NCBI GenBank assembly: GCA_963822135.1
Contig: CAWGGI010000004.1
Coordinates: 32,812 to 96,811 of the forward strand
Length of the DNA stretch: 64,000 nt
Source: an uncultured Actinomycetota bacterium
GTDB lineage: Bacteria; Actinomycetota; Thermoleophilia; RBG-16-64-13
Direction of reading: 5' to 3'
The notes below the pieces were generated by a model that worked only from the letters and a program-made list of their open reading frames with translations, ran no database searches and was not told the DNA's origin. Position numbers and translations under genes: made by a program. Shown here piece after piece: positions 26,575 through 55,382 of this stretch (the stretch's first letter is position 1; every line of letters starts with the position of its first letter).

Positions 26575-26608
26575 GTGTATGCTTCCTTGTTATAAGGAAA
26601 AGTGCCCG

Positions 26609-28716: not shown

Positions 28717-28879
28717 GCACTCCCCCTAAACGGATGACAACACTTATCCTACCGCGCGTGCGGATGCGAACCGTCGTGGACCGCCCCCTAGTGCGCTGCA
28801 GTCTAGCACGCACTCCTCACCATCGCGCAATCGATTATCACTACGTGTATACGAGATATCGTCCCATGCTTGCGTGGTA

Positions 28880-29955
28880 TCAGCAGATACGCGGCAGAGT
28901 CTCCCCCGGCGGCATGTCGATGATCCGTTCGCCGCCGATCCTGGTGGCGAGGACGGCCTTCCCTCCCGCCTGGGCGGTGACTTCGCCGATGATCGCCGCC
29001 GAGGTTCCGAGCGGATGGGACCGGAGCGCAGCCAGGACGTCCGCCGCAGCCTGCGCGGCGCAGAACAGCACCAGCTTGCCCTCGTTCGCGACCGCGAGGG
29101 CTCGAAGCCCAGCAGGTCGCACGCGCCGCGCACGGAGCCGCGTACAGGTATGCGGGTCTCGTGGATCCGCATTCCGTATCCGCAGGCCTCGGCCATGTCG
29201 CACAGGGCGCCGGCCAGTCCTCCCCGAGTGAGGTCGCGCATGGCGTGCATCTCCGGCGCCGAATTTCCAGCACCGCCGCGGACCAGCTCCCCGAGGGGAG
29301 CGCAGTCGCTGACCAAGTCGGCGGAGAAACGAGATGCCCGAGCGCCGGGCCATGATCGCCGCGCCGTGGTCGCCCAGAAGGCCGTTCACGATGATGGCGT
29401 CGTCCGGCCGGATGCGATCGGGGCCCAGCCGGGACGACCCGACGATCCGACCGATCCCCGCCGTGTTGATGATACAGCCCGTCACATCGACCCTTCTCGA
29501 CCACCTTGGTATCGCCGGTGACCACGTTGACTCCGGCCTCCTTGGCCGTCGACCCCACCGAGCGGAGACGGCCGCCAGGTCGGCGATGGGAAGTCCCTCC
29601 TGGAGCACCAGCGCCAGGCTCATCCACAGCGGCTCTGCGCCCATGACCGCCAGGTCGTTGACCGTGCCGCACACGGCCAGCTTGCCGATGTCACCGCCGG
29701 GAAAGAACAGGGGCGGACGACGTAGCTGTCGGTGGTGAAGGCCAGGTCACAGGCCGCTGCATCGGCGGCCACGGATCCCGTGGACCCGCAGTCGCGCAGC
29801 CGGAGCACGGCGGAGTCGTCCAGCGGATGAAGGAGCGGGTTGTCGAGAACGGGCAGGATGACCGACTCGATGAGTTCCTTGGTGAGAAGGCCTCCACCGC
29901 CGTGGGCGAGCAGCACTCGGTCCGATCTGATGCGTCGTGAGCGCCCGGGACTCAT
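28880..29955 (-). pseudogene. hypE: Hydrogenase maturation protein HypE; about 7-8 frame changes
   Basis: LLAHGGGG, CGTVNDLAVMGAEP, VVTGDTKVV, MRDLTRGGLA and the C-terminal PRIC (carbamoylated Cys motif) are spread over three frames (ORFs 29620.., 28880.., 28803.., 28744..). The ATG at 29955 overlaps the hypD stop. Confidence 0.85.
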
Positions 29956-31046
29956 GAGTCCCTCCTTGTCCCGTATCGCCAGTGTGCGGCGCAGGCCCCC
30001 TCGCTGGACACCATGCAGGGGCCCTCGGGCGTGAGCGGAGAGCAGCGCCGGTCGAACAACGGACATTCGGGCGGAGCGATGACTCCTCGCAGCACGTCGC
30101 CGCAGCGGCAGCCCCGGGGCGGCTCCCCGGGCACGATCTCGACCCCGAACTTCGTGGCTGCGTCGTGCTCGCTGAACTCGGCGCGTACGGCCAGCCCGCT
30201 CCCCGGGATCACCCCGAGCCCCCTCCATTCGCTGTCGCAGGCCTCGAAGACCTGGGCCATGATCTGCTGGGCGATCTGGTTGCCCTCCCTGGTGACCGCA
30301 CGGCCGTACTCGATCTCCACTTCGCTGCGGCCCTCGGCTATCTGACAGAGCAGCATCGCGATGCCCTCCAGCAGGTCGACATCTTCGAAACCGGTCACGA
30401 CACAGGGGAGGCGATACTCGTCCGCCAGAAAGGAGAAGACCGCAGCCCCGGTGATCACACTCACATGTCCGGGGCAGATGAACCCGTCGATGGCCACGTC
30501 TCCCCCGCTCGCCAGAGCCCTCATCGGTCCCGGCATGGTCTTGAGGGCGCTCAGCACCGAGAAGTTCGCCAAGCCCTCGTCCCGGGCCGAGCGGATGGAC
30601 ACTCCCACTCCGGGGACGGTGGTCTCGAACCCCACCCCCAGAAAGACCACGGAACGCGCGGGATCTTCCCGGGCAAGCGCGAGCGCATCGGTTGGAGAGT
30701 AGACCACCTGGACGGACGCTCCCCCCGCCCTCTCCCGCTCCAGTGAGGAATCGCTTCCCGGCACCCGGACAAGGTCGCCGAACGTGGCCACCGTCACCTC
30801 GGGCCGCCGACACAACTCGATGGCCGCGTCGATGTAGCCGTTGGGGGTGACGCACACCGGGCACCCCGGACCGGAGATCAGACGCACCGATTCCGGCAGC
30901 AGGGAGCGCAGCCCGCTGCGGAAGGCCACCATGGTGTGAGTCCCGCACACCTCCATCAGCCGCACCGTGCGGCCGATGCCCGCCGAGTACTCGGCAATGC
31001 GCGACAGCCCCGACGCGCCGGCGGGATGTCCCTCGGCGATCACCAC
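29952..31046 (-). CDS. hypD: Hydrogenase maturation protein HypD
   Basis: MEVCGTHT, GPGCPVCV, FETT, and the C-terminal Cys-rich motif CRCGDVLRG...CPLF...C...PEGPCMVSSEGACAA. Intact, 364 aa. Confidence 0.9.
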   Translation of the reverse strand: MVIAEGHPAGASGLSRIAEYSAGIGRTVRLMEVCGTHTMVAFRSGLRSLLPESVRLISGPGCPVCVTPNGYIDAAIELCRRPEVTVATFGDLVRVPGSDSSLERERAGGASVQVVYSPTDALALAREDPARSVVFLGVGFETTVPGVGVSIRSARDEGLANFSVLSALKTMPGPMRALASGGDVAIDGFICPGHVSVITGAAVFSFLADEYRLPCVVTGFEDVDLLEGIAMLLCQIAEGRSEVEIEYGRAVTREGNQIAQQIMAQVFEACDSEWRGLGVIPGSGLAVRAEFSEHDAATKFGVEIVPGEPPRGCRCGDVLRGVIAPPECPLFDRRCSPLTPEGPCMVSSEGACAAHWRYGTRRDS

Positions 31047-31264
31047 GCCTCACTCGACCAGGTGCCGTCCAGCATGGCCTTCCATTCGAGGACGTCCCGC
31101 TCGGTCCACCGTTCGATGGCGAATCCGGCATGCACCAGAAGGTAGTCGCCGACGGCGACGCCCTCCACCAAGGATAGGTCGACATCGCGCCGCGCCCCGT
31201 CCACCGAGACCACGGCCTTCGTCCCCGTCACTTCCACCACTTCGCACGGCACGGCTAAGCACAT
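31040..31264 (-). CDS. hypC: Hydrogenase maturation chaperone HypC
   Basis: Begins MCLAVPCEVVE (the essential Cys2). 74 aa within ORF 31040..31489. Confidence 0.9.
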   Translation of the reverse strand: MCLAVPCEVVEVTGTKAVVSVDGARRDVDLSLVEGVAVGDYLLVHAGFAIERWTERDVLEWKAMLDGTWSSEAW

Positions 31265-33745
31265 GAGAGTTCCCCTTCGGCTGCCCGCGCCAGGGCGACC
31301 GCTACCTGCCCCAGCGAGATTCCCCCGTCGTTGCAGGGTACGGCAGAGTTGGCGTGCACGGTCAGGCCTTCGGCGGTCAGCGCGCGTGTCAAGCCGCTCA
31401 GCAGCAGGCGGTTCTGGAACACCCCGCCGGAGAGCACGACCTCCCGGAGCCCGCGCTGCGCGCAGAGGCGGACCGCGGTCTCGGCGCACGCGGCGATGAC
31501 GGTCTCGTGGAACCGGGCGGCGATGAGGCCTGCCCCGGTTCCCCGCTTCATGTCGCCCAGCAGCGCCACGAAGGCCGGTCCCAGATCGAGCTCCCAGGGT
31601 TCCTGGTCCGCGCGGATGCCGTATGGATATGGTGCGGCGGCGCCGTCCGCGGCCTCGCGGCAGGCCGCGGTCGCGGCCGTCTCCAAGCGTATGGCGCCTT
31701 GAGCCTCATATCCGGCGGTGTCGCAGTAGCCCAGCAGCGCCGCCACCGCGTCGAACATCCGCCCGGCACTGGAGGTGAGAGGGCAGTTGAGGCCCGACTC
31801 GATGAGCGTGACGATCCTGTCCGCCCGTCCATCCGCGAGCCACTCCGGCATGCGGATGCCGGCAGATACCGTCTCCCCGGCAGATGCAGACACCGTCGGA
31901 CTCGGACCCATATCCGCGAACGCGCCGGCGAGGTCGATCCCCTCGCCGTGGCACACGCTCACGGCCATCCGCCAGGGCTCGTCGATGGCCTTCTCTCCGC
32001 CCGGAAGCGGGTAGCGCCGGAACCGAGCCAGACGTTCGAAGGCGCGCCGGTCTGCCACGAGAAACTCGCCCCCCCATACCGTGCCGTCGGGACCGTAGCC
32101 CGTCCCATCCAGGGCCACTCCCAGCACCAGCTCCTGCAGCCCGCACTCCGCCATGACTCCCGCGATGTGGGCGTGATGGTGCTGCACGCCGATCAGAGGC
32201 ACGCCTTCAAGCCGGCAAGCATAGCGGGTGGAGAGATAGCCCGGATGAAGGTCATGGGCCACGAACTCGGGCTTGACCCGCAGGAGCGCGAGCCACCTCT
32301 GGATCTCCTCTTCGAAGAAGGTGTTGGTGGCGTGATCGGCCAGGTCGCCGATGTGCTGGGAGACGTAGGCATTGCCCTCCACCGCCAGGCAGAACGTGCT
32401 CTTGAGGTCGCCCCCCGTGCCGAGGATCACCGGCGAGCCGGCGGCGGCGCGAGGAGGCCGCACCGGCCGATGAGCCGCTGGCAACCTGCGAGCCGGCCGC
32501 CAGCGGAATGGGGGTGGGTACGAAACCCCGGGCCCGGCGGAGGAACCGGCGCTCGCCATCGACGAACCGCACCACCGAGTCGTCGCAGCGATGCTGGATG
32601 AGCCGGTCGTGAGTGAGGGCGGCATCCGCGATCCCTTCCCCAAGGAGAACCGCCACCTGGTCCTCGTCCTGGGCGATGGGCTCCTCGAGGTGGTTGCCAC
32701 TGGTGAGGACCAGGGCCTCGAACTCCTCCATGAGCAGATGGTGGAGGGGGGTGTACGGGAGGAAGACACCGGTGTCGTCGGTGTCGGGGGAGATGCCCGG
32801 ACCCAACAGGCCGTCGAGCACGACGATCGGGCGCGCCGCGGAGAGGAGTTCGTCCTCCTCTGGGGGCGTGACACGGAACCGCTCCCGCAGCGCGGCGAGA
32901 TCGCGGAACATCACAGCGAGAGTCTTGTGCGGCCGTTCCTTGCGCGCCCGAAGTCGATCGACGGCGTCCACATCGAAGGCGTCGCAGGCCAGGTGGTATC
33001 CCCCCAGACCCTTCACCGCCACGATCGCCCCCTGCCGGAGCAGAGCCTGCGCTCGCCGCAGCGCCTCCTCTGTCTCGGCTACGGGCCGCCCGTCGCTCCC
33101 CAGGAGAGTCAGACGTGGCCCGCACACCGGGCAGGCGTTGGGCTCCGCGTGAAAACGCCGATCGCCGGGATCCGCGTATTCCCGGCCGCAGTCCGGGCAG
33201 AGCCGGAAAGTGTGCATGGACGTGTTGGCCCTGTCGTAGGGAAGATCGCGGAGTATGGTGAACCGCGGCCCACAGTCGACGCAGTTGATGAACGGGTAAC
33301 GGAAGCGCCGGTCGCGAGAGTCGCGCATCTCGGATAGGCACGGACCGCAGGTGGCGAGGTCCGGCGGGAGTTGGACGGTGACCGCCCCGCGCGTCTCCGA
33401 AGCGACCACGTCGAACCGCTCGTAACCCTCGAGCGGCAACCTCTCCGTCTCGAGCCGCAGGATCGACGCCCGCGCGGGGACGCTCTGCTCGAGCCGCTCG
33501 AAGAAGAGAGAGACATCCCCCTCGCGCCCCTCGACCTCCAGCGTCACACCGCCCGGGTCGTTGCGCACATAGCCGGTCAGACCGCAGGCGACGGCATGTC
33601 GGTAGACGGCCGGACGGAAGCCGATCCCCTGCACCCTGCCCGCGATGGTCGCCCGCACCCGGGTGCGGGCTCCGTCTGCGCGACTTTCGGTGGCGGCGCC
33701 GCCGGCACGGTCGCCGGCTGCGCTCCATCCGTCACCAGAGTTCAT
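31255..33745 (-). CDS. hypF: Carbamoyltransferase HypF; one or two frame changes near 32440-32480
   Basis: Acylphosphatase domain (RVQGIGFRPAVYRHA), two CxxC-x18-CxxC zinc fingers (CGPCLSE...CVDCGPR; CPDCGREY...CPVCGPR), YrdC-like and Kae1-like parts (GGDLKSTFCL, HHHAH). Joined from ORFs 32252..33745 and 31255..32874. Confidence 0.88.
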
Positions 33746-33841
33746 CGCGTGACGGCTCTGACGTCACCGGAGCTCATCGCGCGGCGGTTCCGCCGTCACC
33801 GGGATTCATCGCGCGGCACCGGTGCCCTGGTGATGACGCTC
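33742..33841 (-). repeat. 32-nt tandem repeat (3 units plus a degenerate one) spanning the hypB stop and hypF start; each unit ends CGCG-ATGA
   Basis: ATG codons at 33809, 33777 and 33745, each overlapping a TGA (ATGA). The units encode MNPGDGGTAAR*, MSSGDVRAVTR* and then HypF MNSGDGW.... Confidence 0.8.
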
Positions 33842-34480
33842 GATCGCTCCGGCCACCCAGTCCACAAGACCCTCGATGCCCTGGCCCGTCCGGCAGGAGA
33901 CCTCGATGAGCGGGGCATGCGGGTTCAGCCCGCGGAAGTCCTTCACGAAGGTCTCCATATCGAAGTCGGTATGCTCGAGCAGGTCCATCTTGTTCAGAAC
34001 CAGCGCCGAGACCTCGTGGAAGAGCAGAGGGTACTTGGCCGGCTTGTCGTGCCCTTCCGCGACGCTGAGGATGCCGACCTTGGCGTCTTCGCCCAGGTCG
34101 AATTCGGCCGGGCAGGCTATGTTGCCCACGTTCTCGATGAACACCAGGTCGAGCGTCTCCAGCGGCAGCTCGGCGAGACCCCTGGCCACCAGCGCGGCCT
34201 CCAGATGGCAGCCCCCGTTGGTGAGCAGCTGGATGACGGGGACCTCGAGCGCCCCGATCCGCTGGGCGTCCCGAGTCGTGGCGATATCGCCCTCGAGCAC
34301 GGCCAGGCTGAACCGCTCGCGCAGCAGCGGGATGGTCTTCTCGAGCAGTGAGGTCTTGCCGGCCCCCGGCGCGCTGATGAGATTGAGAGCCGTGACCCCC
34401 GCCGTGGCGAGCAGCTTCCGGTTCTCTGCCGCCGCCTGATCGTTCGCCTCGAGGATGTTCTGCAGGACCTTGATCTCCAC
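33806..34480 (-). CDS. hypB: Hydrogenase nickel-incorporation GTPase HypB
   Basis: P-loop SAPGAGKTS, ENVGNIACPAEFDLGE (CH/metal motif region GGCHLEA), NKMDL. GTG start after AGAGGGAG. Confidence 0.9.
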   Translation of the reverse strand: MEIKVLQNILEANDQAAAENRKLLATAGVTALNLISAPGAGKTSLLEKTIPLLRERFSLAVLEGDIATTRDAQRIGALEVPVIQLLTNGGCHLEAALVARGLAELPLETLDLVFIENVGNIACPAEFDLGEDAKVGILSVAEGHDKPAKYPLLFHEVSALVLNKMDLLEHTDFDMETFVKDFRGLNPHAPLIEVSCRTGQGIEGLVDWVAGAIERHHQGTGAAR

Positions 34481-34497
34481 GTTCGCGCGCTCCCTCT

Positions 34498-34845
34498 TCA
34501 GTCGTCGGACAACTCAACGCTGACCAAGTTTAGCTCCTGCCCGGTGAGTAGCTCGCCACCAGGACCTCCGCACCCCGGGCAGACGAGCAGGGGGGCCTCG
34601 GCCGTGAAGACCTCGCCGCAGCGCGAGCACCTGCTCGTGGCCTCCACCATCTCGATCTCCAGCCGAGAGCCTTCCAGTGCCGTCCCCCTGGTGAGAACTT
34701 CGTAGTAGAACTCGAGACTATCCTTGACCACCAAACGCCAACTGCCGATGCGCAGCCCGGCCGACACGACCGCACGGCCCTCATGGGCGGCCCGCACCTC
34801 CTCGATCTGCTCGACCAGCGCCTGGGCGATGCCTAGCTCGTGCAC
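34498..34845 (-). CDS. hypA: Hydrogenase nickel-insertion protein HypA
   Basis: Begins (V/M)HELGIAQ. Zinc site CSRCGEVF...CPGCGG. The ORF could extend to the GTG at 34872. Confidence 0.85.
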   Translation of the reverse strand: MHELGIAQALVEQIEEVRAAHEGRAVVSAGLRIGSWRLVVKDSLEFYYEVLTRGTALEGSRLEIEMVEATSRCSRCGEVFTAEAPLLVCPGCGGPGGELLTGQELNLVSVELSDD

Positions 34846-34889
34846 CGGCGGCGATCCTTCAGAGGCGGGCACGAGTTACCATTGCGGCG

Positions 34890-35397
34890 ATGATGCGAAT
34901 GAAGACCCTCGTACTGGGAATGGGCAACCCGATACTCTGCGACGACGCGGTGGGGATACGGCTTGCCCGTGCCTGCAGCAACAGGCTGAGGGACCGCCGA
35001 CGTCGACTACGTGGTCGATTGCTCCGTGGGGGGCCTGAACATCCTCGACCTGGTGACGGGCTACGACAGACTGATCGTGTTCGACTCGATACAGGGTCGG
35101 GCGGGCCTCCTGGCGCCTGGTATGCGATGACCGGCGAGACCTTCAGGGAGACCATGAACCTGACCAACGTGCACGACGCGAATTTTACCACCGCCCTCGA
35201 GCTGGGCAGGCAGATGGGCGCGCACCTCCCCGGCCCCGAGGGACGTGCATATCTTCGCCGTCGAGATCGTCGACAACATGACCTTCTCGGAGAGTATGAC
35301 CCCCGAACTGGAGGCCGCCTACCCTGCCCTCCGTGCCGCGGTTGTGCGGGAAGCTCTCGCCCTGCTGCATACCCCTGCTAGTCCGTCCGCGGGGTAG
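34890..35397 (+). pseudogene. [NiFe]-hydrogenase maturation endopeptidase (HyaD/HybD/FrhD family); about 3-4 frame changes
   Basis: MKTLVLGMGNPILCDDAVGIRLA, ...DVDYVVDCSVGGLNILDLVTGYDRLIVFDSIQG..., ...LTNVHDANFTTALELGR..., ...DVHIFAVEIVD.... These lie in different frames, with the stop at 35395-35397. Confidence 0.8.
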
Positions 35398-36102
35398 AAG
35401 CCGACCAGTTGTCTCCCAGCGCAGCCGCCTCGCTCGTACCTCTTTCTGCGCTCGGCGTGACCGGCCCGGTCTCGCAGCCCACCGGGGAGTAGTAGATCAT
35501 CCCGCAGTTCCTGCACCGGTATTGTTCGGTCTCGTTCACGATGACGAAGGGCCGGTTGGCCGTCGAGCATTCGGGACAGGACATGCTGCGCATCTCGCTG
35601 CTGGCGGTGGTCTGAGGGATCGGGGTGCTGCGGGCGGCCACCAGATACTGCCGGAGAACGGCTGGTCGACCAGCCTGGCGCGCAGCTTCTCCAGACGGTC
35701 CGCCGTGACGCCGGCGATCGTCCTGACCACCCGGTAGCCGATGTGGTTGTTGGCCTCGAACAACTGCCTCAGCTTCTCGCCGTCCAACACGACGATGGTC
35801 GCATCCTCCGTGACCCATATGGCGGCCTTGAACATCTGGTCGTTCAGCACCGCCGACCAGCCGAACACGCTGCCCGGCCCCAACTCGTCGATGAGCACCT
35901 CGTTGCCGTCGCGGCTGCTCATCCTAACCGCGACCCGACCTTCCTTCAGCATGTAGAGGGCCCCCGCGTTCGTGCCCTCCGCGATGACGCGCGAACCTGC
36001 GCCCCTCTTCTCGACGGTGCCCAGCTTGGCCACCTCTTCGAGCTCCCTATCGTTCAGCTGGTCGAACAAGTTGCAGCATCTCAGTTCGTCGACCGGGATC
36101 AT
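35378..36102 (-). CDS. Cyclic-nucleotide-binding (Crp effector-type) domain protein with C-terminal zinc ribbon; one frame change near 35650
   Basis: cNMP-binding fold (LFDQLNDRELEEVA..., AEGTNAGALYMLKEGRVAV..., GPGSVFGWSAV). Tail in another frame: CPECSTANRPFVIVNETEQYRCRNCG. Confidence 0.65.
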
Positions 36103-36162
36103 CTCTAGCACCTCCTGGCTCCCGGACGGGGAGAAGCTCACCCGTACCGCCCCGCGAGCCGA

Positions 36163-37629
36163 TCAACAGTTGCGCTTGATCGTCTTGATGAGCTCGCCGT
36201 TCTTGTACAGGGCGGCCTCGAGCGGCATCTTGCCCAGGCTGTGCGTGGCACAGCTGTAGCAGGGGTCGAAGGCCCGGAAGGCCATCTCGACCATGTTGAG
36301 GATGCCCTGGTCCGGCTCCACGCCGGGCTTGATCAGGGCCTGGGCCACCTTCTTGGTCACCATCTGGATGGGGGCGTTGTTGTTGGTGGTGCCGACGATG
36401 AGGTTGGCGCTGGTGCAGATGCCCCGTTCGTCGCAGGTGTAGTGGTGGGTGAGGGTGCCGCGCATGGCCTCGACGATGCCGACGCCCTCGCCGGTGATGC
36501 TGCTGCGGGATGACGCGGCACGCCCTCGCTGGTGATCTCCGGGTCGGCGCAGTAGCGCTGGAGCGTCTCGGCGTTCTGCACCATCTCCACGAGCCGGGCC
36601 CAGTGCTGCGCCAGCAGCGCCTTGCAGGGATGGCCGCCCAGGGTGCGTGAACATCTCCTCGAACGCCTCCTGGGCCTTGGGCGTGGCCATGCGGTCGGCC
36701 ACGTTGAGCCGGGCCAGAGGCGTGGCGCAGTACAGGCTCGAGTCGATGCCCTCCACGAAGCCCTTCCAGCCCCGCTTCTTCAGGTACGGGAACTTGAGGT
36801 AGGTCCAGGGCTCCACGTGCTCGGCCACGTACTCGGCGTAGTCTCTGGGCTCGTACTTGTAGATCTCGTGGCCCTCGAAGTCCACCACGCGGACCTTGCC
36901 GTCGTAGAAGTTGGGGGCGTTGTTCTCGTCGACCAGGCCCATGTTGTGGACGTCGAGGGTGTACGGGCCGTTGACGATGAGGTCGACGTAGGCCGGGTTG
37001 CCCAGGACCACGTCCCGGAAGAGCTGCAGGGAGAACTGGGCGAAATCGTACAGCTCGTCCACCCAGGGCTTGATCTGCTCGAGCTCTTCCGGCTTGAGCC
37101 CCTTGGACACGCCGCCCGGCAGGCACCAGATGCCTGGGTGGTCCGGCCGCCGAGGACGTGCTGGATCTCCTGCGCCAGGGCCCGCGCCCGGATGACCTTG
37201 CCGCCGATCTCCAGGCCCACCTTGGCCACCACCCCCAGGATGTTGCGCACCGCCGGGTCGGCGTCGGGACCGCAGACGAAGTCGGGCGCCGCCAGCGCGT
37301 AGAAGTGGGCGATGTGGCTGTGGATGTAGTGAGCGTTGTAGTACATGTCGCGCAGCTTGTGGGCCAGCGGCGGCCACCTCGTTGCCGAAGCAGCCGTCCA
37401 CGGCCTTGGCGCTGGCCATGTGGTGGCTGGCCGGGCACACGCCGCAGATGCGGGTGACGATGCGCGGCAGCTCCTCGATGGGCCGGCCCACGACGAAGCG
37501 CTCGAAGCCGCGCAGCTCGGGGATCTGGAAGAAGCAGTCCTCCACCGCCCCGTCGTCGTCGAGGAAGATCTCGATCTTGCCGTGGCCTTCGAGCCGGGTG
37601 ATGGGATCGATGGTGATCGTTCGCGTCAT
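36163..37629 (-). pseudogene. mvhA: [NiFe]-hydrogenase large subunit, group 3c (MvhA-like); about 5-6 frame changes
   Basis: MTRTITIDPITRLEGHGKIEI, N-terminal Ni-Fe motif RICGVCPASHH and C-terminal DPCYSCATH. Internal segments are in other frames (for example ORFs 36780..37346 and 36357..36590). Confidence 0.85.
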
Positions 37630-38602
37630 TGCGCGGTAGCTCCTTTGCAGCAGCGAGGCCGGCAGCCCGAAGCGGTAGGCGAAGCTCGATGAAGTCGGGC
37701 AGGCCGGCGAGGATCCGCGTCGATCTCTTCGGGATCCTTGCTGTCGATGATCGAGGCGACCGCGCTGGCGAGCTTGGCGCCCTGGTCGACCACTCCGGGC
37801 AGCGGGACCGTAGCAGCCGCGGCACGCCATGCTGCTGTTGGGGCAGCGCACGCCGCAGCCCGAGCGGGTCGCCGAGCCGCAGCAGAGGATCGCCCTGCTC
37901 GAGCAGGCAGCGTGTCGGGGTCCTGGATGATCTCGCCACGGGCGGTAGAAGTGCTTGACCTTCTTCTCGTTCTTGGTGCGCTGGCAGTCGTCGCAGAGCG
38001 CGCGCTCGGAGGCGCCGACCACCGAGCCTTTCGGCGGCAGCTCGCCCTTCACCACCGCCAGGAGCGCCGCCTTGACCTGGTCGGGTGCCGGCGGGCAGCC
38101 GGGCAGGTAGTAGTCGACGTCGACGACGTCGTCCAAGCTTGTAGACCCGCCGGTAGAAGCGCCGGGATCTCGAGAGCGTCAGCCGTCGACGGCGCTCTCC
38201 GGCTGCGGCACGGTGCCGTTGCCCGGCTCGATCGAGGGGTTGTCGAGGTAGGCCGTCTCGAAGATCTCGCTCCTCGGTGGTCAGGTTGGCCAGGCCGGGG
38301 ATGCCGCCCATGTGGGCGCAGGAGCCGAAGGCGACCAGCAGCTTGCTCTTCTGCCGCAGCAGCTTGGCGATGTGCTCGTTCTCGCTGTTGCGCACCGCGC
38401 CGTTGAAGAGGGTGAGGTCGAGCTCGCCGTCCGCCATGGCCTCGACGTCCGTGTACTTGCCGTCGACGGCGATGGGCCACAAGCGGATGTCGGCGACCGC
38501 CGCCACGTCGAGGATGAACTCGTTGGTGTCGAGCACCGCGACGTCGCAGCCGCCGCACGCCGCGCCCCAGTACAGGGCGATCTGGAGCTTCTTGGCGGCC
38601 AT
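37626..38602 (-). pseudogene. mvhG: [NiFe]-hydrogenase small subunit (MvhG-like); many frame changes; 3' end uncertain
   Basis: MAAKKLQIALYWGAACGGCDVAVLD, FGSCAHMGGIPG, YLPGCPPAP, CCGSATRSGCGVRCPNSSMACRGCYGP, recovered from several frames. Confidence 0.8.
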
Positions 38603-38605
38603 GGC

Positions 38606-39045
38606 TCACCTCTCCAGCCGCGTCTGGTCGCCAGCGTCGGTCCGTGATCGCGCTGCGGCCCCAGCGCCCGCACCCTCTCGGTCATGTCGTTGACGATGTC
38701 GGCGAACCGCTGGCCCTCGCTGGCGCTCACCCACTCGAGGCGCACGCGGGCCGTCCTCGACGCCGTAGTCGGCGAGCAGCGTCTTGAGCAGCGGGAAGCG
38801 CCGCATCGCCTTGTAGTTGCCCTCCGAGTAGTGGCAGTCGCCCGGATGGCAGCCGCAGATCAGCACCCCGTCGGCGCCTCCGCCAGGGCCTGCAGGACGA
38901 AGGTCGGGTCGATCCGGGCCGAGCACATGACCCGGATGACGCGGACGTTCGGCGGGTACTGGATGCGGCTGGTGCCGGCCAGGTCGGCGCCGGTGTACGA
39001 GCACCAGTTGCAGAGGAAGCCGACGATCTTCGGTTCGAAGCTCAT
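38606..39045 (-). pseudogene. mvhD: MvhD-like [2Fe-2S] subunit (methyl-viologen-reducing hydrogenase delta); about 3 frame changes
   Basis: [53 protein letters not shown]. The ATG at 39045 overlaps the hdrA stop (ATGA). Confidence 0.8.
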
Positions 39046-40795
39046 GCCAGCACCCCCTCGATCTGGGCGAAGATCTGCTCGTCGGTGAAGTGGCGCGCCT
39101 TGATGGCGCCGCGACGGGCAGGCGGCCACGCAGCGCGCCGCAGGCCTTGCAGAGCGGCGCTGATCACGTGACTGCGCTTCTTCTCGAGCGTCGTAACTCG
39201 ATGGCGCTGTAGGGGCACAGCTCGTTGCACATGCGGCACCCCGAGCAGCTGGTCCTCGTCGACCTCGGCGAAGACGCCGTCGATCTCGATCTTCCCCTTG
39301 GCGATCTTGCGCCAGGATGCGCGCCGCGGCGGCCCGCGCCTGGGCCACGCGTGTCGGGGATGTCCTTGGGCGCCGCGCAGGTGCCGGCGATGTAGATGCC
39401 GTCGGTGGTGGTGGCCACCGGGTCGAGCTTGGGGTGGCTCTCGATGAACCAGCCGTCCTTGTCCTGGCTGATGTTGACCAGCCGGGCGACCTCGCCCGGA
39501 GTCTTCGCGCGCCTCCATGCCCACCATCAGGATGACCAGGTCGGCCGGGATCTCGATCGTCTCCCCGGACAGCTTCTCGTTGACCTCGATCAGCATCTCG
39601 CAGTCGTCGCTCGGGCCCCGCCTTGCGGATGACCGGGTGCTCGTTCTTGCCGTACATCAGGAACATGGTCTTCACCTCCGAGCGTCGTCCGGTAGAAGTC
39701 CTCGCACCCCTTCCCGAAGGCGTGCATGTCGATGTAGAGGTCGTACACGTAGCAGCCGGGGATGGCGCGACTTGATCTCGTGGGCGTACTTGAGCGCGGT
39801 CATGCAGCAGACGCGCGAGCAGTAGCCGTGGAACTCCGTGCTGCGGCTGCCCACGCAGTGGATGATGGCCACGTACTGCGGCAGCCGTCCCGTCGCGGGT
39901 CTGCGATCCGCCCGGCCCGCAGCATCTGCTCGAACTCGAACGAGGTGATGACGTTGGGCAGCTTGCCGTAGCCGTAGTGGGTGACCCGGCGCGGCGTCGA
40001 ACTCCTTGTAGCCGGTGCCCACGACGACGTTGCCGACCTCGACCTGGCTGTCCGTGCGCCGTCGCCCTCGGTGCGTCTCGGACAGTGGCCGTGAAGTTGC
40101 CGACGAAGCCCGTCGAGCGCTTGCGAGCTCGGAGCGGAGCAGGACGCTCGATGCGCGGTGCTCCTGCACCCGGGCGATGCGCTCGGTGCAGCAGGTCGCG
40201 CGCCGAGTCGAGATGGGGCGCGGTGAGGTCGACGCGGGCCAGGTTGCCGCCGAGGCTGTCCGCTGCCTTCTCCACCAGCAGACCGGCTGCGCCGCCGTCG
40301 GCCAGCTCCAGCGCCGCGGTCAGCCCGCGCGATGCCGCCGCCGATGCACCAGCGTGCGTCGGGCACATCTCCACCGTGCAGCGTCTCCAGCGGCTCGTGC
40401 TTGGCGACGCGGCGCGATGGCCGCGCCGGTCAGCGCCATGGCCTTCTCGGTGGCGGCCCGGCGGTCGCTCGTGCACCCAGCTGCACTGCTCGCGGATGTT
40501 GGCCATCTCGCAAGAAGTACGGGTTGATGCCGCCGGTCTGCAGGCCGCCCGGAAGGTGGGCTCGTGCATGCGCGGGCTGCAGGCGGCGACCACCACCCGG
40601 TCGAGACCCTGCTCCTGGATGTCCTTGATGATCATCTCCTGGCCGGGGTTGGAGCACATGTACTTGTAGGAGCTGGCGCACCGCCACGCCGGGCATGCTC
40701 CGCGGCGGTCTCGCACGACGTCTCGCAGTCCACCACCTTGGCGATGTTGGTGCCGCAGTTGCAGACGATAGACGCCGATCCTGTGCTTCTTCCAT
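39042..40795 (-). pseudogene. hdrA: HdrA-like FAD/FeS flavoprotein, copy 2 (QmoB-like position); heavily frame-disrupted
   Basis: [112 protein letters not shown]-terminal ferredoxin [13 protein letters not shown] at 40795. Confidence 0.8.
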
Positions 40796-40806
40796 AGCTG
40801 ACCTCG

Positions 40807-41981
40807 TCACGCGTCAGCAGCGCCGCTGGCCGGCTGCGGGCCGCCCGCGGCCGCGGCGGCGCTGCATGGCCTCGAGCGCGTCGCGGTGATCGCCGCGAAG
40901 TACATGGCCAGCGGCCGGTAGGCCAGGTGCGACCACTTGCTGAAGGGCACCTCGAGCACGAGCATCGGGACCACCCCATCAGGTGCACGACGTAGGTGAT
41001 GTTGGCGGCCGCTCGAGGCCGGTGCGGTGCAGGACGTGCTGCACGACGCCGGTGACGGCCACGACGAGGAGCATGATCAGGAAGATCCAGTCCGACTCGT
41101 GGGAGTGCGTGTAGTGCGGCTCGGTCTTCCTGAGCCGGCCGCGCAGCGCGAAGATCGACGTCCCGCAGCAGGCCGACGCTGGCGACGTAGCCGAAGGCGT
41201 GGACCGCCAGTCGATCGTCGGGCCCCGCCTGCATCGTGCCAGGAAGAACATGATCAGGACCAGCATGGTCACGTAGCTGAGCATCAGCACCAGGTGGATG
41301 GCCCACGGCCGCTTCGTTCTCGCACTTGGCGTACCGCTTCTGGGTGAAGAAGTGCAGCGGCAGCAGGTAGAGCGCCTTGACGTAGCTAGCCAGACCGGCG
41401 CGTGCAGGTCGCTTGTTGCGGCCCGATCGTGAACCACCACATGCGGACGGCGTTGATGAGCAGCAGGACGCCAGAGCACGCCGGCCATGACCCAGTCGAA
41501 GACGTGGACGCGCGAGCTCGGCAGGAACGCCTGGGCGCCGTCGTAGGAGCCGGATGTCGCCGCCTGGCAGGAAGCCCGTAGGCAGGAAGCCCACGCCGGT
41601 GAGGAGGCGCCACCAGAAGCATGGCCGCGAGCTCGGCCTTCCAGGAGCGGTAGAACAGCGCGCGAGATGCCGGTGAAGTCGTAGCGCGAGGTCAGCCAGC
41701 GGCGCAGGCTCATCATGGTCTCGCCGGGCTCGGCGCCGCGCGGGCACTGCGTCGAGCACTGGCCGCAGTAGTAGCAGAGCCACGGCTCGAGGACCCCTCA
41801 TCAGCTTCTCCTCGAGCCCCATCTGCAGGTATGCGCATCGGACTTGCGGGGAAAGACGAAGGGCTCGTCGGAGTGGGGGCACACCGCCGAGCAGTTGCCG
41901 CAGTGGTAGCAGTTCTGGACGTCCTCGGCGCCGTAGCTCTCCAGCTCGTCGATCAGCTTCGGGATTGACTCGAATCGCCAT
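40807..41981 (-). pseudogene. QmoC/HdrE-like membrane protein: N-terminal 2x[4Fe-4S] domain plus C-terminal multi-TM His-containing (heme b-type) domain; frame-disrupted
   Basis: MAIRVNPKLIDELESYG...CYHCGNCSAVCP...YYCGQCSTQCP. TM segments follow (WAIHLVLMLSYVTMLVLIMFFL, DWIFLIMLLVVAVTGVVQHVLH, VVHLMGVVPMLVLEVPFSKWSHLAYRP). ATG at 41981 after GAGGAGG. Confidence 0.65.
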
Positions 41982-41992
41982 GTCTCGCCTCC

Positions 41993-43817
41993 TCAGCCAG
42001 TGCCTGGCCAGCGCGTGCGCGGCACGCGCCTCGATCTCGCTGAGCGACAGTGCTGCTCCGGCTGCCGAGCCCCCGCCCGCTGATGATGCTGCTGCAGCGC
42101 GCCGGCGGCGACCGCCGAGGCCTGCGCCACCGTGTCGGGGATGTCCTTGGGCGCCTGGCAGGCTCCCGGCGACGAAGATGCCGCCGCGCTCGGTGTCGGT
42201 CGGCTCGCAGTTGTAGTTCAGCTCGCTGAACCAGCCGTCCGCGTCGCGGCCGATACCGAGCATCTCGGCCAGGCGGTCGCTGTCCCTTGGCCGGCATCAA
42301 GCCCGACGGCCAGGATGACCATGTCGACCGGGAACTCGACCAGCCGGTCACTGACGATGTCCTCGCCCTTGACGATCATCTGGCCGTCGACCTCGGTCAC
42401 ACGTGGCGGTGCGGCCGCGGACCACGAGGCACCTTCCGCCTTGATGCGCTCCATGAACTCCTCGTAGCCCTTTCCGAAGGCCCGCATGTCGATGTAGAAC
42501 TCGTAGCAGGCGGCGTCGGGCAGCTTCTCCTTGACCAGGTGGGCGAACTTCAGCGAGTACATGCAGCAGACGCGCGAGCAGTAGGGGTTGTAGTTGCGCG
42601 TCCCGCGACCCGACGCAGTGGATGATGGCGACGCTGCGAGGAGGCTTCCCCTCGGGGTCCAGGACCCACTCGTCCATCTTGTGCGCTTGTTGGGCTTGCA
42701 GGGTCTTGGTGACGATCTTGCCGCCGGTGGGTCCGGAGGCGTTGGTCATCCGCTCGAACTCGAGCGCGGTGAGCACGTTCGGCAGCACGCCGTAGCCGTA
42801 GCGCTCGATCTTGGTGGCGTCGAACACGTCGTAGCCGGTGGCCAGGACGATGTTGCCCACCTCGAGCTCGACCATCTCGTCCTTCTGCGTCGAGGTCGAT
42901 GCACTCCTTGGGGCACTTCTTGGCGCAGGCGCCGCACTTCTTGCCGTCGCTCTCGAAGTACAGGCAGACTCTCGGGTCGACGAGGTAGGCGTTGGGCACC
43001 GCCTGCGGGAACGGGATGTAGATCGACTTGCGGGTGGCGATCCCCGAGTCGAACTCGCTCGAGGCCCGGCGACCGGGCAGATCTCGGTGCAGGCGTTGCA
43101 GGCGACGCAGGATTCGACGTCCACGCGCCGGGCCCTCTTGCGGACGCTGTACCTTGTAGTCCCCGGGAGACCCGCTGACGCCTTCGACCTCGCGAGTAGG
43201 TCATCAGGTCGATCATCTCGTGCTGCGCCCACCGCCACCATCTTGGGCGTCAGGATGCAGGCGGCGCAATCGAGCGTCGGGAAAGGTCTTGTCGAACATG
43301 GCCATGTGGCCGCCGATGGTGGCCGTGCGCTCGACGAGGTAGACCTGCTTGCCGGCGTCGGCGATCTCGAGAGCCGCCTGGATGCCGGCCACACCACCTC
43401 CGATGATCAGCGTGCCCGGACGGGTCGCCGTGGTGCCGGGCCGCGCCGCCAACGGGAATGGGACCCCGAGGACGGCGCAGGCGACTATCGCACTTGGCGT
43501 CTGGGTGCGCCCCCCATGGCGCCGTGCTCGCGGAACGAGGCCAGTCGGACCTCGTCGGGATCCCCGCCAGCAAGTGCCATGGCCCGCGTGAAGACCGGCT
43601 TGAAGAACCCGGGCGAATCGCCGGCGACGACGATCCTTTCGAGCCGGTCCTTCTTGATCGCCTCAGACAGTGCCGCCGGGTCCAACTTGGGCTGTACGCC
43701 CAGATTTCGTACCGTCTCCACGCTTGGCAGGTTCGACGCGTACGACTCGACCGAGTGCAGATTGATCCCCTCTTGAGCGTCTTCCCACCCCTGGACGATG
43801 AATACTCCGGTCCTCAT
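41993..43817 (-). pseudogene. hdrA: HdrA-like FAD flavoprotein, copy 1 (QmoA-like position), with a cysteine-less N-terminal domain; frame-disrupted
   Basis: LIIGGGVAGIQAALEIADAGKQVYLVE, FPTLDCAACILTPKM, ferredoxin insert [27 protein letters not shown]. The N-terminal 110 aa (ORF 43485..43817) align to the HdrA N-domain but lack its Cys residues. Confidence 0.75.
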
Positions 43818-43870
43818 ACTCCTCCCCTTTGGCGTTGAAGTGTGACGGACTTACGTAGTGGGTCGATGGG

Positions 43871-43902
43871 AACAAAAAGACCGGCCTGCAAGAGACCGGT
43901 CT
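43871..43902 (-). terminator. Rho-independent terminator (AGACCGG - 11 nt - CCGGTCT then TTTTTG on the minus strand)
   Basis: 7-bp stem at 43878-43884 / 43896-43902 with the U-tract from 43874-43878. It lies 56 nt upstream of the hdrA start and 345 nt downstream of the acsE stop. Confidence 0.55.
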
Positions 43903-44247
43903 GAGCAGAAGGATTGTGGGAAAGACGTGGGAGCGCGCAGAAACTCGAGGCCCCGACCGCCGGACGTCCCGGGGGACGCCCAGGGGACCCCCGCCCAAGC
44001 GTGGGCAAGAGAGCACCCATACCACTTTCGCCAGCCAATTTCTTCCCCCAGAAACTGACATAGCCTTTTCCCGCTTGCGCCACGCTAGCATCTTGCCCGT
44101 GTCCGAGGCAAGACAATCGCGGTATAGACCTTTCTCACGCCACGGCGCGCACCCTGGCGATCAGCCCCGAGTAGTCACCGGCCGCGCCGCCAAACAGCGG
44201 CGCGGCCGACGCTCCCTGTCGCCGCCGGCGCGCCGGCGGCACCTCTA

Positions 44248-45168
44248 TCAGGTGCGCAGGTACGAGTCGGTGAAGATCACCTTGTTCAGGAGCACCTGCA
44301 CCGTCTTCCACACATCCACCTGGTCGGGGTCGGACATGTCGACGTCCGAGGGCTCCAGTTCCTCCATGGCGGCAGTGCGATCGTGGAGCTTGAGGAGAAG
44401 AGAGCCGACCCCAGTCGAGTCGTCACGCTGCTCGACTATGCGTATGAACTCCATCAGCTTCTCGTCGAGCGGGTCGGCGATGGCGGTGTCGAGGCCGGCA
44501 GCCATGAGCATGACCAGATAGGTACGGTTGAGCAGGCTCCGCTTCTCCGCCGCCACCGTGTTGGACACGTTGCTCAGACCGATGGTGGTCATCGGCGCCG
44601 GATCCATGCCTTGCTTGACATAGCGGATGGCCTCGAGGGCGTGAGGGGCGTACTCTTGACAGCCGGCCACGGTCATCGCCAGGGGATCCAGATACAGCCT
44701 ATCCATGGGGATGCCGACCTCCATCGCCCGCGGGACCAGCTGGTCGATGGCGATGGAGACCCGTTCCTCGGCGGTCATGGGGATGCCGCTCTTGCCCATC
44801 ATGAGGGCGATGAGCCCCGCGTTGTACTCCGCGGCCACGGGAGGAACGCGTTCCAGGCGCTCAGGTTCCCCAGAGGTGGAGTTGACGATCCCCGGCTGTT
44901 TCAGGAGAGCCAGACCGGCCTTGATGGCCTCGAGGTTGGTGGTGTCGAGGGAGATGGTCACGTCGACCACCTCTTGGACGGCCGGCACCAACCACTCCAT
45001 CACCTGGGGTCCCTCCTTCTTCTGGGGACCCACGTTGAGGTCGAGGATCGTGGCGCCACTCTCGACCTGGGCCTTCGCCAAGCGCTGCACGGCCTCGGTG
45101 TCACGGTTGGCTATCGCTTCCTTGACCGCGGGAGCGATGATGTGGATGTTCTCACCGATGATCAGCAT
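44248..45168 (-). CDS. acsE: Methyltetrahydrofolate:corrinoid/iron-sulfur protein methyltransferase
   Basis: Pterin-binding (DHPS-like) TIM barrel: IIGENIH, ILDLNVG, SLDTTN, NSTSG, YLDPL, GLSNVS. Intact, 306 aa. Confidence 0.88.
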   Translation of the reverse strand: MLIIGENIHIIAPAVKEAIANRDTEAVQRLAKAQVESGATILDLNVGPQKKEGPQVMEWLVPAVQEVVDVTISLDTTNLEAIKAGLALLKQPGIVNSTSGEPERLERVPPVAAEYNAGLIALMMGKSGIPMTAEERVSIAIDQLVPRAMEVGIPMDRLYLDPLAMTVAGCQEYAPHALEAIRYVKQGMDPAPMTTIGLSNVSNTVAAEKRSLLNRTYLVMLMAAGLDTAIADPLDEKLMEFIRIVEQRDDSTGVGSLLLKLHDRTAAMEELEPSDVDMSDPDQVDVWKTVQVLLNKVIFTDSYLRT

Positions 45169-45183
45169 GGCTCCTCCTTGGCG

Positions 45184-45961
45184 CTAGGCACGATCGGGTA
45201 TACGCAGGCATTTCTGCAGGATGGCTTTGACGGCTGGATAGACGGCCGACGAATCGTCCAGGTCGATCAGGGGCCGGCCGGCGGCATCGTACGTACCGAT
45301 GTCGGGGTCCTGGGGAAGCAGGCCGAGGAGCGGAACCCCCAGCGCTTCGGCGCGGGCGAGGAACTCCGGAGGCAACTCGCCGGAGACCCGGTTGACGATG
45401 AGACCGGAGTGGCCGATACGGGTGCCCAACGAGTCCACGAGCCGCACGATCTGCTCGGCGGCCGCCAGGCCTCGCTGGGAAGGGTCGCTGATGATGAACA
45501 GCCAGTCGACATCGCGCGTGGTCTGCCGGCTGATGTGCTCCATGCCGGCCTCGTTGTCGATGACCACGCTTCGATAGTTGTCGCCCAGACGGTCGATGGC
45601 CGAGCGAAGCATGTGGTTGGCGGCGCAGTAGCAGCCCGGTCCTTCCGGCCTGCCCATGGCCAGCAGATCGACGTCGTGTCCCTCGACCACGCACTGCTCC
45701 ACCTGATACTGGAACCAGTCGGGCTTGGAGATGCCCTGCTGGAACGTGCCCGCCCGTGACCTGGTCGCGCGTGTCCTCGCGGATCTGGCCGACCGTCTCG
45801 CCCAGGTCCATCCCCAGGGCCATGTTCAGATTCGAGGCCGGATCGGCGTCGATGGCCAGGACCGGGGTGAGCCCGACCTCGAGCAGGTACTTCATCGCGA
45901 GTGCGGCGAAGGTGGTCTTGCCGGTGCCACCCTTGCCGACGATCGCCAGGGTCTCGGTCAT
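45184..45961 (-). CDS. cooC: CooC-type nickel-insertion ATPase (CODH/ACS accessory); one frame change near 45740
   Basis: Deviant Walker A GKGGTGKTT, DADPASN, metal-binding CYC in GPGCYCAANH. The ATG at 45961 overlaps the upstream stop (ATGA). Confidence 0.85.
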
Positions 45962-49303: not shown

Positions 49304-49375
49304 GTGGCGCGCTCCTTTCGCGTTGGGACGTCAGCGTTCACGGCATCGGCAGTCACGGTCGGGCCGGTCGCCGAC

Positions 49376-50350: not shown

Positions 50351-50391
50351 CCAGGTCTCCTTTCTTGCGGGGCGCGTCCCATGGACGGTTC

Positions 50392-54700: not shown

Positions 54701-54750
54701 TACTGCTGCTCCTTTCGATGTGCCACACGCAGCCCAGGGGCTCTGCCCGG

Positions 54751-55376: not shown

Positions 55377-55382
55377 GGACCC

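Follow-up and report, generated by a model that had tools for sequence, protein, structure and literature searches.

A conserved six-gene operon of an Mvh-type hydrogenase, two HdrA-like flavoproteins and a QmoC-like membrane subunit in uncultured bacteria, and its proposed role in coupling H2 to menaquinone and ferredoxin

To our knowledge, flavin-based electron bifurcation by HdrA is understood only together with HdrBC and with the methanogen heterodisulfide in the role of high-potential acceptor. The function of HdrA and Mvh homologues in the many bacteria without coenzyme M is the question raised by an operon, hdrA1-qmoC-hdrA2-mvhD-mvhG-mvhA, found in a 64,000-nucleotide stretch of DNA (the window) from an uncultured actinobacterium of the class Thermoleophilia (GenBank assembly GCA_963822135.1, contig CAWGGI010000004.1, positions 32,812 to 96,811). 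The operon encodes an Mvh-type [NiFe] hydrogenase, two HdrA-like flavoproteins and a QmoC-like membrane subunit, and its gene order recurs far beyond chance in other genomes. From the predicted cofactor ligands we propose, as an on balance probable answer, that its products may act as one membrane-attached complex that reversibly splits the electrons of H2 between menaquinone and ferredoxin.

Composition of the operon

A first-pass annotation of the sequence had placed the six genes in this order on the minus strand, had noted their tight packing with an ATGA overlap at hdrA2/mvhD, and had described the cluster as the hydrogenase module of methanogens combined with the membrane module of Qmo, without HdrB in the window. 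The order, strand and coordinates all stand (Table 1). Pfam and NCBIfam searches, run on frame-corrected translations, back each gene, and the composition is upheld by both the models and the corrected frames. In the DNA, hdrA1 begins with a ribosome-binding site and an ATG at 43817, and its stop codon is followed after an 11 nt gap by the qmoC ATG (41981). The qmoC stop lies about 10-20 nt ahead of the hdrA2 ATG (40795). The ATGA overlap at hdrA2/mvhD can be read directly, mvhG/mvhA overlaps in the same way, mvhD and mvhG are spaced by 3 nt, and the mvhA stop is at 36163.

The sequence as given, with a G+C content of about 67%, has no intact open reading frame (ORF) for any of the six genes in the ORF lists, and the frame switches every 100-150 nt along recognizable protein stretches. 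Correction of the sequence, which the first-pass annotation had proposed, was done by two methods. In the first, codon log-odds were trained on the window's own long, high-GC3 ORFs and used in a Viterbi search that allowed one-base slips; this gave 61 frame changes in 35300-44300, a few of them misplaced, among others those at the start of qmoC and within the Cys motifs of the two flavoproteins. In the second, proteins of clean orthologues were aligned to the window DNA with tolerance for frameshifts. This homology-guided alignment, which may over-call shifts in divergent stretches, placed 90 slips across the six genes, mostly one extra base, and recovered all six proteins, with 72-87% identity to orthologues and zero in-frame stops. 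Single-base indels recur about once in every 85-150 nt; most of them add a base, no link to homopolymers is obvious, and every gene examined was affected. Eight independent runs, four of wetland DNA and four metatranscriptomes, supplied contigs of relatives; at the predicted sites these are one base shorter or longer than the window (Table 1), and the indels are therefore errors of the window sequence and not gene decay. A decayed pseudogene cluster with genuine frameshifts would equally leave none of the six genes intact as an ORF in the given sequence. This reading was rejected as next to impossible in view of the stop-free reconstructions, their identity to orthologues and the relatives' contigs, which lack the indels; moreover, the neighbouring genes are frameshifted too, yet corrected translations from across the whole window give strong Pfam matches.

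The membrane protein matches the NCBIfam qmoC model NF038018 from end to end (positions 5-360 of 360). As far as sequence comparison goes, the decisive point for its identity is its relatedness to genuine apr-linked QmoC: the window protein is 61-65% identical to the QmoC of two aprBA-qmoABC loci (L014 and L023), where qmoC is preceded by aprB-aprA-(sat)-qmoA-qmoB. More than 3000 database proteins match it; the best 120 are all 65-73% identical, some of them labelled QmoC by IMG, and one IMG fragment of the family carries the label 'nitrate reductase gamma subunit'. In a PDB sequence search the N-terminus of the family aligned to HdrC (E 9e-14), with no other PDB match. Eight Cys, forming two [4Fe-4S] motifs, are invariant in 82 QmoC sequences, and His157, 225, 257, 290, 329 and 348 are conserved in 81-82 of the 82. 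In the AlphaFold2 model (predicted local distance difference test score, pLDDT, 81) six long transmembrane helices follow the iron-sulfur domain. Lys and Arg residues number 12 in the N-terminal domain, 8 in loop 2, 3 in loop 4 and 6 at the C-terminus, all assigned to the inside, against 0, 0 and 0 in loops 1, 3 and 5, assigned to the outside; these counts predict an N-in/C-in topology with a cytoplasmic iron-sulfur domain. This topology brings His156 and His256 close to the outer membrane face and His224, His289 and His347 close to the inner one, a set that would be enough for two bis-His haems and makes the domain a putative di-haem b, quinone-interacting anchor. The earlier description of a QmoC-like subunit with two [4Fe-4S] clusters, several membrane spans and conserved His is thus borne out. 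The outcome that would have spoken against it, a plain polyferredoxin or a protein of an unrelated family, was not what we found. The helix bundle, with His near both faces and a cytoplasmic iron-sulfur partner, recalls in its topology the dihaem cytochrome b of HdrED/NarI type, but the similarity is marginal, NarI has five helices and QmoC six, and the His of QmoC are spread over several helices, not two. A neighbour-joining tree of QmoC was star-like and did not cleanly set Mvh-linked sequences apart from those of other contexts, and no evolutionary order was drawn from it.

Both flavoproteins match HdrA-type models at about E 1e-140, as expected from the first description of two HdrA-like proteins, and align to methanogen HdrA at E ~1e-136 to 1e-148. 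HdrA1 is made up of a degenerate N-terminal domain without Cys, a thioredoxin reductase (TrxR)/FAD domain, an FPTLDCxxC motif and, as an insert, a 2x[4Fe-4S] ferredoxin domain; a ferredoxin domain at the C-terminus is lacking. HdrA2 combines an N-terminal domain bearing 4 Cys with a TrxR/FAD domain that has neither the insert nor an equivalent of Cys197, and it carries a 2x[4Fe-4S] ferredoxin domain at its C-terminus. Both share the cluster motif CVGSR...YCSRVCCM and the FAD motif GxGxxG. A clean HdrA1 orthologue aligns to residues 17-556 of methanogen HdrA 8rvv_A (E 5e-136), and the alignment of HdrA2 to 8rvu_a skips residues 244-325, which are the inserted domain, and covers the C-terminal domain. 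The Cys ligands are invariant in 58 orthologues of HdrA1 and 52 of HdrA2 and are present in the window's reconstructed proteins (HdrA1 rebuilt with 18 frameshifts, 0 stops and 81% identity to the related locus L044; HdrA2 with 0 stops and 80% identity). The two proteins are thereby predicted to hold complementary halves of the cofactor set of methanogen HdrA. In methanogens HdrA is a homodimer of a four-domain chain, whereas in the operon two polypeptides carry half of the accessory domains each.

Since the apr-linked QmoA/QmoB pair of L014 is split in the same way, and its QmoB also carries a fused MvhD-like end, HdrA1 is the likely counterpart of QmoA, and HdrA2 together with MvhD that of QmoB. 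The identity of the operon flavoproteins to apr-linked QmoA/B is only 29-37%, and they stand much nearer to archaeal HdrA, with 542 and 601 bits on the HdrA2 model against 325 and 359 for the apr-linked pair. They fit the type II Qmo of Neukirchen et al. 2023 (PMC10504309), which occurs with or without Apr/Dsr and whose role was left open by those authors. A type II Qmo is also found in Ammonifex degensii, a cultured organism that uses H2. QmoABC of sulfate reducers and Chlorobi shares with the operon the two HdrA-like flavoproteins, their domain split and QmoC, but its gene order is A-B-C instead of A-C-B followed by mvhDGA. It is also linked to aprBA, whereas the operon has neither aprBA nor sat nearby, and the MvhD-like end that is fused to QmoB in apr-linked Qmo is here a separate mvhD gene, followed by a real hydrogenase.

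The claim of an Mvh-type [NiFe] hydrogenase with MvhD was likewise confirmed by VhuA, VhuG and FlpD matches and by ligand motifs. VhuA was the best of all hydrogenase models for MvhA (the next, NiFeSe, gave E 1.5e-54), and for MvhG the VhuG model outranked FrhG (E 1e-14). The VhuA and VhuG scores of 374 and 143 bits are under the archaeal equivalog cut-offs of 800 and 450, and the sequence comparison assigns the enzyme to group 3c (Mvh/Vhu-type) at family level, not as an equivalog. Reconstructed MvhA contains RICGVCPASH and DPCYSCATH, corresponding to the Ni-Fe ligand motifs RxCGxCxxxH and DPCxxCxxH, and a C-terminal extension for protease processing; it has 0 stops and 87% identity to L044, and MvhG is 82% identical to L044. 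In MvhD, encoded directly upstream of mvhG, Cys12, 15, 41, 66 and 71 are invariant in 59 sequences.

No HdrB (CCG domain, PF02754, E<=1e-5) was found in the frame-corrected coding-strand translations of the 64 kb, the scan covering all but ~1-1595 and 60813-62192. Within the same near-whole-window scope there was no stand-alone HdrC, methylenetetrahydrofolate reductase (MTHFR/MetF) or APS reductase (AprA/AprB). This agrees with the first reading, in which HdrBC was absent from the window, and neither hdrBC nor another acceptor module was seen just past the corrected gene boundaries. The MvhAGD-HdrABC complex of methanogens (PDB 5ODC, 8RVU, 7BKB) shares with the operon the group 3c hydrogenase, MvhD, the FAD and iron-sulfur chemistry of HdrA and the 2x[4Fe-4S] of HdrC, but it has HdrB, with its noncubane clusters and disulfide site, which the window operon does not. 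Unlike methanogen HdrC, the HdrC part of the operon is fused to a six-helix membrane domain, and the complex should thus be membrane-bound and quinone-linked.

Conservation, donor modules and hosts

One genome per GTDB species was scanned, which gave at least 592 species with a relative of the window QmoC, and 80 loci were fetched. Together with four loci obtained by exact protein look-up, 84 loci (L001-L084) were compared. The synteny comparison across metagenome-assembled genomes (MAGs) that had been suggested at the outset found the order hdrA1-qmoC-hdrA2-mvhD-mvhG-mvhA identical in 50 of the 84. Two loci have the order mvhDGA-hdrA1-qmoC-hdrA2, nine break off at a contig edge, five (six counting L048, which was misfiled by the classifier) carry the hdrA1-qmoC-hdrA2 core but no hydrogenase, and 18 were classed as having more distant flavoproteins, aprBA-qmoABC loci included. 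The identical operon is present in at least 50 species-level MAGs of nine or more phyla. The hosts, all of them MAGs, belong to the Acidobacteriota, Actinomycetota (Thermoleophilia, Gaiellales), Myxococcota, Latescibacterota, Sumerlaeota, Krumholzibacteriota, Chrysiogenota, Bacteroidota and others; no cultured host was found among the family members. When the six proteins of 38 complete operons were compared, their pairwise-identity matrices correlated with r 0.38-0.88, at mean identities from 0.62 (QmoC) to 0.78 (MvhA), a pattern that fits genes inherited and transferred together. Wetland metagenomes are rich in fragments of the family, and each of the six genes, qmoC included, is covered by metatranscriptome contigs of relatives. 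The operon is common in uncultured soil and wetland bacteria. One full operon (L061) is labelled 'Patescibacteria group bacterium'; because its arrangement is nearly identical to that of Chrysiogenales and Aminicenantes loci, this contig is probably mis-binned.

In the eight Pfam-annotated contexts (among them L001-L004 and L085-L087) the genes on either side of the operon are unrelated, HycI is usually its last gene, and neither a CCG-domain gene nor a separate HdrC lies near it. These contexts bear on whether the true acceptor might be a third protein encoded elsewhere, such as a disulfide reductase resembling HdrB/HdrD, a partner like AprAB or of the DsrC type, or, in the window lineage, methylenetetrahydrofolate reductase, with QmoC as one of two outlets. 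There is precedent in canonical Qmo, where AprAB receives its electrons from the flavoproteins (PMC3333476); aprBA-qmoABC and DsrE-associated clusters have a QmoC of this same branch, and a candidate gene could sit in the genome beyond the window. We nonetheless regard such an acceptor as very unlikely, for no such gene is linked to the operon in the window or the annotated contexts, and the operon travels across phyla as a self-contained unit.

The DsrE-associated form was seen in Actinomycetes MAGs (L035, L036, L051, L055, L057, L062 and L082; 4300-11200), in which a QmoC of this branch is preceded by a 972-aa fusion of MvhD and HdrA, a full HdrA and a small protein resembling DsrE, a third context for QmoC that is not known to have been described.

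Loci without the hydrogenase point to other electron donors. In L068 and L072 (4700-8100) the core adjoins MvhD, two iron-sulfur proteins and a Flx-like FAD/NAD-binding protein, and in L010 (12900-16200) it adjoins MvhD, an iron-sulfur protein and a molybdopterin (formate-dehydrogenase-like) oxidoreductase. Because these hydrogenase-less loci carry Flx-like or molybdopterin modules together with MvhD, the core appears to take alternative, MvhD-docked donors. The same adaptor principle is seen in FlxABCD-HdrABC of Desulfovibrio and Fdh-MvhD-HdrABC of Methanococcus, but those systems end in HdrBC, whereas the ones described here end in QmoC. The molybdopterin ORF of L010, as called, is without its N-terminus, which may reflect a selenocysteine TGA. 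In six loci (L016, L017, L056, L060, L079 and L084; ~1-7500) the Qmo-type operon has a further hdrA-mvhD-mvhG-mvhA cluster, of the conventional kind, at a distance of 1-4 kb. Because the identity of its products to the window proteins is low (only 42% for HdrA, 61-65% for MvhD, 39-49% for MvhG and 47-59% for MvhA), these six genomes appear to keep two distinct Mvh systems side by side.

A proposed reaction and its alternatives

The proposed complex would be assembled from the six gene products, attached to the membrane and facing the cytoplasm. MvhA and MvhG would oxidize or evolve H2, and the [2Fe-2S] adaptor MvhD would pass electrons to the entry clusters of HdrA2 in an HdrA1/HdrA2 heterodimer and from there to FAD. 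HdrA2, with its N-terminal [4Fe-4S] domain and C-terminal ferredoxin domain, would represent the entry part of methanogen HdrA; HdrA1, with the inserted ferredoxin domain and a Cys that would complete a cluster of its partner, would represent the exit part. Together they would rebuild one complete HdrA unit around a FAD. From the flavin, one electron would follow a high-potential branch through the two [4Fe-4S] clusters of the HdrC-like part of QmoC and the membrane haems to menaquinone, which would take the place of the methanogens' heterodisulfide/HdrB. The other would follow a low-potential branch through the ferredoxin domain of HdrA1 to ferredoxin or a ferredoxin-like partner. With menaquinone as MQ and ferredoxin as Fd, the overall reaction would be 2 H2 + MQ + Fd(ox) <-> MQH2 + Fd(red) + 2 H+, and at low H2 it could be reversed, quinol and reduced ferredoxin then yielding H2. 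The first-pass annotation had suggested a coupling of H2 to menaquinone, to a bifurcating HdrA or to both, which is in line with the conserved cofactor ligands and the exchangeable donors; it is from sequence that we infer complex formation, haem and quinone binding, bifurcation and direction.

The standard potentials (E0') are -414 mV for H2, -74 mV for menaquinone, about -450 to -500 mV for ferredoxin and -140 mV for the heterodisulfide. By these textbook values menaquinone would serve as high-potential acceptor no less well than the heterodisulfide, and the overall reaction would be near equilibrium at 1-10 Pa H2; its direction may thus depend on conditions. A plain, non-bifurcating H2:menaquinone oxidoreductase, in which flavins and clusters serve as a wire with no third redox partner, would be another use of the same parts. 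All elements for transfer from H2 to quinone are present, no ferredoxin gene is found in the operon in the annotated contexts, and many hosts are from groups known as respiratory soil bacteria. However, such an enzyme would waste ~340 mV by established potentials. It would leave unexplained both the need for two flavoproteins and the strict conservation of eight Cys in the inserted domain of HdrA1, which is the ferredoxin-reducing arm of methanogen HdrA, and it would do a job that simpler membrane-bound uptake hydrogenases already do. We consider it quite unlikely.

Another alternative is that the physiological direction of the complex is H2 evolution by confurcation, using menaquinol from fermentative or beta-oxidation-type dehydrogenases and reduced ferredoxin in wet, anoxic soil depleted of acceptors. 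Canonical Qmo is thought to draw its electrons from menaquinol (PMC3333476), and anchors of the NarI/HdrE type normally oxidize quinol. The family is also abundant and transcribed in wetland and sediment samples, and the two HydABC-type [FeFe] clusters of the window, with their sensory modules, are typical of H2-cycling anaerobes. This direction would, however, be feasible only below roughly 1-10 Pa H2 at standard potentials, and the position of the operon between CODH/ACS (CO dehydrogenase/acetyl-CoA synthase) and hyp genes in the window lineage fits H2 uptake for CO2 reduction equally well. Sequence data carry no directional information, and we hold confurcation to be unlikely. None of the rival readings is favoured by the data.

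Several observations weigh against a reversible split of H2 electrons between menaquinone and ferredoxin. The window membrane protein scores 185 bits with NF038018 and does not reach the cut-off of 300. A clean Mvh-linked orthologue (178), the apr-linked QmoC of L014 (190) and a DsrE-linked QmoC (169) are also below it, and because the apr-linked QmoC itself scores only 190, the cut-off appears to leave out this whole QmoC branch and not only the Mvh-linked form. PF02665 (NarI) matches 2 of 30 members, with a best E of 0.0019; the assignment of haem b consequently rests on QmoC homology and the conserved His. A Foldseek search with the AlphaFold2 model gave no significant match for the membrane domain; its best E was 0.2, and NarI chains had probabilities of 0.77-0.87, E ~1 and TM-scores of 0.40-0.43 on the target. 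If the quinone site were near the outer face, as in NarI, quinone reduction from the cytoplasm would dissipate membrane potential, complicating H2 uptake. By analogy with AprAB for Qmo, an enzyme rather than free ferredoxin could act as partner to the ferredoxin domain of HdrA1, and hdrBC or another partner could be encoded outside the 64-kb window. In addition, all bacterial hosts found are MAGs, and the complex is known from genes alone.

Both the architecture and the hypothesis of electron transfer from H2 to menaquinone and ferredoxin are already in print for archaea. Lynes et al. 2024 (PMC10945360) reported an 'Mvh-Qmo-Hdr' "unique gene cluster", highly expressed in culture, in Ca. Methanoglobus hypatiae (Archaeoglobi). 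It comprises MvhAGD, two copies of HdrA (one of them QmoB by DiSCo) and QmoC with an HdrC-like part, and has no HdrB. It was hypothesized to bifurcate H2 electrons to menaquinone and ferredoxin, which, according to the same paper, follows Buessecker et al. 2023 for Ca. M. nevadensis. The stated composition and proposed function are the same as here, the likeness being one of published description and not of sequences. The Ca. Methanoglobus hosts are archaeal thermophiles, whereas the hosts of the present operon are mesophilic bacteria of many phyla. Apart from the Archaeoglobi cluster, no paper with QmoC and an Mvh hydrogenase in one operon was found in the literature searched, in which there was also no mention of the operon in bacteria, of how widely it occurs, of the complementary HdrA1/HdrA2 split or of the alternative donor modules. 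A hydrogenase as partner of Qmo was only speculated upon by Ramos et al. 2012 (PMC3333476), and MAG papers routinely annotate such genes 'MvhADG-HdrABC'.

Surroundings and significance of the operon

The region upstream of the operon contains a complete CODH/ACS cluster (44248-56200, minus strand) encoding CooC, CODH, ACS, both subunits of the corrinoid iron-sulfur protein (CFeSP), RACo, CooC and AcsE. The gene order of this cluster is identical at two Gaiellales-like MAG loci, L044 and L025, the latter from a Gaiellales MAG. These are the closest relatives of the window and share the arrangement ACS-CFeSP-RACo-CooC-AcsE-[operon]-cNMP-hyp; no Wood-Ljungdahl neighbours were found at loci other than these three. 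The proximity to Wood-Ljungdahl genes remarked upon in the first description therefore holds in the window but is not a property of the operon, and a mechanistic Wood-Ljungdahl link as a general property was rejected. In the Gaiellales-like actinobacterium itself, reduced ferredoxin from the proposed complex would feed the adjacent CODH/ACS. The hairpin between acsE and hdrA1 suggests that the operon may be transcribed apart from the Wood-Ljungdahl genes; 3 terminator-like sites were found in the scanned region, against 3.4 expected by chance. No match to a sigma-70-like promoter was found in the region scanned, and no Rfam family, riboswitches included, in 34-46 kb.

On the other side, the cyclic nucleotide monophosphate (cNMP)-binding protein and the maturation protease that had been reported to flank the operon were identified by PF00027 and PF01750. 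Among related loci, the cNMP gene is downstream of the operon only in L025 and L044, and it is a lineage-specific neighbour, its product possibly a regulator. The protease gene, convergent in the window, follows mvhA on the same strand in L001, L003, L086 and L087, and it is the seventh gene of the operon in most other genomes.

Table 1. Features of the operon and its surroundings in the window
Feature	Coordinates	Strand	Assignment and evidence
hdrA1	41993..43817	-	QmoA-like HdrA flavoprotein; NCBIfam HdrA2 model E 6e-141
qmoC	40810..41981 (3' end approximate)	-	HdrC-like 2x[4Fe-4S] plus six-helix membrane domain; NF038018 E 3e-54
hdrA2	39042..40795	-	QmoB-like HdrA flavoprotein; NCBIfam E 7e-139
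mvhD	38606..39045	-	[2Fe-2S] adaptor subunit; PF02662 FlpD E 3e-56, positions 1-123/123
mvhG	37626..38602	-	[NiFe] hydrogenase small subunit; PF01058 Oxidored_q6 E 7e-25, VhuG E 1e-41
mvhA	36163..37629	-	[NiFe] hydrogenase large subunit, Mvh/Vhu type (group 3c at family level); PF00374 NiFeSe_Hases, VhuA E 6e-112
cNMP-binding protein with C-terminal Cys4 zinc-ribbon	35378..36141	-	PF00027 E 8e-17; clean L044 orthologue 1.5e-19
HycI-type hydrogenase maturation protease	34890..35393	+ (convergent)	PF01750 E 2e-6
hypA-hypB-hypF-hypC-hypD-hypE	28950..34850 (approximate, frameshifts)	-	Pfam HypA, cobW, zf-HYPF/Sua5/HypF_C, HupF_HypC, HypD, AIRS/AIRS_C
Terminator-like hairpin	43878..43902	-	10-bp stem and T run between acsE and hdrA1; consensus match only
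AcsE	44248-45168	-	Rest of CODH/ACS upstream of operon
Corrected indel sites in relatives' contigs	43282, 40328, 39351, 39496, 36645/6, 41012, 41659, 41798, 37132		

Other genes of the window were noted in passing. A small ORF (MKQTIINVPGMWADHHVLRVRESLLG...) lies at ~54900-55200 (minus strand) between cooC and the CODH gene and has no Pfam match at E<=1e-5. Upstream of the Wood-Ljungdahl block, at 57600-58700 (minus strand), are genes for a DUF7144 membrane protein and a pyridoxal phosphate (PLP)-dependent decarboxylase. The two HydABC-type [FeFe] hydrogenase sets (NuoE-like, NuoF-like and HydA) are at 24549-29700 (minus strand) and ~13900-21700 (plus strand), and the NuoF of the plus strand is fused to a GltD-like NAD(P)H/FAD domain (Fer4_20 and Pyr_redox_2). 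At ~10338-14500 and 21000-24547 (plus strand) a Rex repressor precedes sensory [FeFe]-hydrogenase domains of HydS-like type, which come with HATPase, PHP, response-regulator and histidine-kinase modules; the whole looks like an H2- and redox-sensing regulatory block.

By itself the window is of limited value: its sequence is full of errors, and an earlier proposal of the concept exists for Archaeoglobi. The operon is real and conserved, the complex that it would encode is probably important, and it appears here, as judged from its genes, as a bacterial, Wood-Ljungdahl-adjacent member of a previously proposed kind. A wider view, possible but doubtful, is that HdrA1-QmoC-HdrA2 is a general quinone-linked bifurcating hub with interchangeable MvhD-docked donors (Mvh hydrogenase, a formate-dehydrogenase-like enzyme or a Flx-like NAD(P)H module) and the HdrA-proximal ancestor form of the Qmo of sulfate reducers. 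Such a hub would operate close to equilibrium in hundreds of uncultured species of soils and wetlands and would connect ambient H2 with the quinone pool and with CO2 fixation that depends on ferredoxin. For a large subset of the bacteria that have HdrA and Mvh homologues without coenzyme M, the operon offers a concrete and testable answer, namely that menaquinone, reached through QmoC, would replace the heterodisulfide. If this is true, a reversible site joining H2, quinone and ferredoxin would be of consequence when H2 turnover, acetogenesis and the fixation of CO2 are modelled for anoxic soils, and it would bear on how the Qmo of sulfate reducers works.

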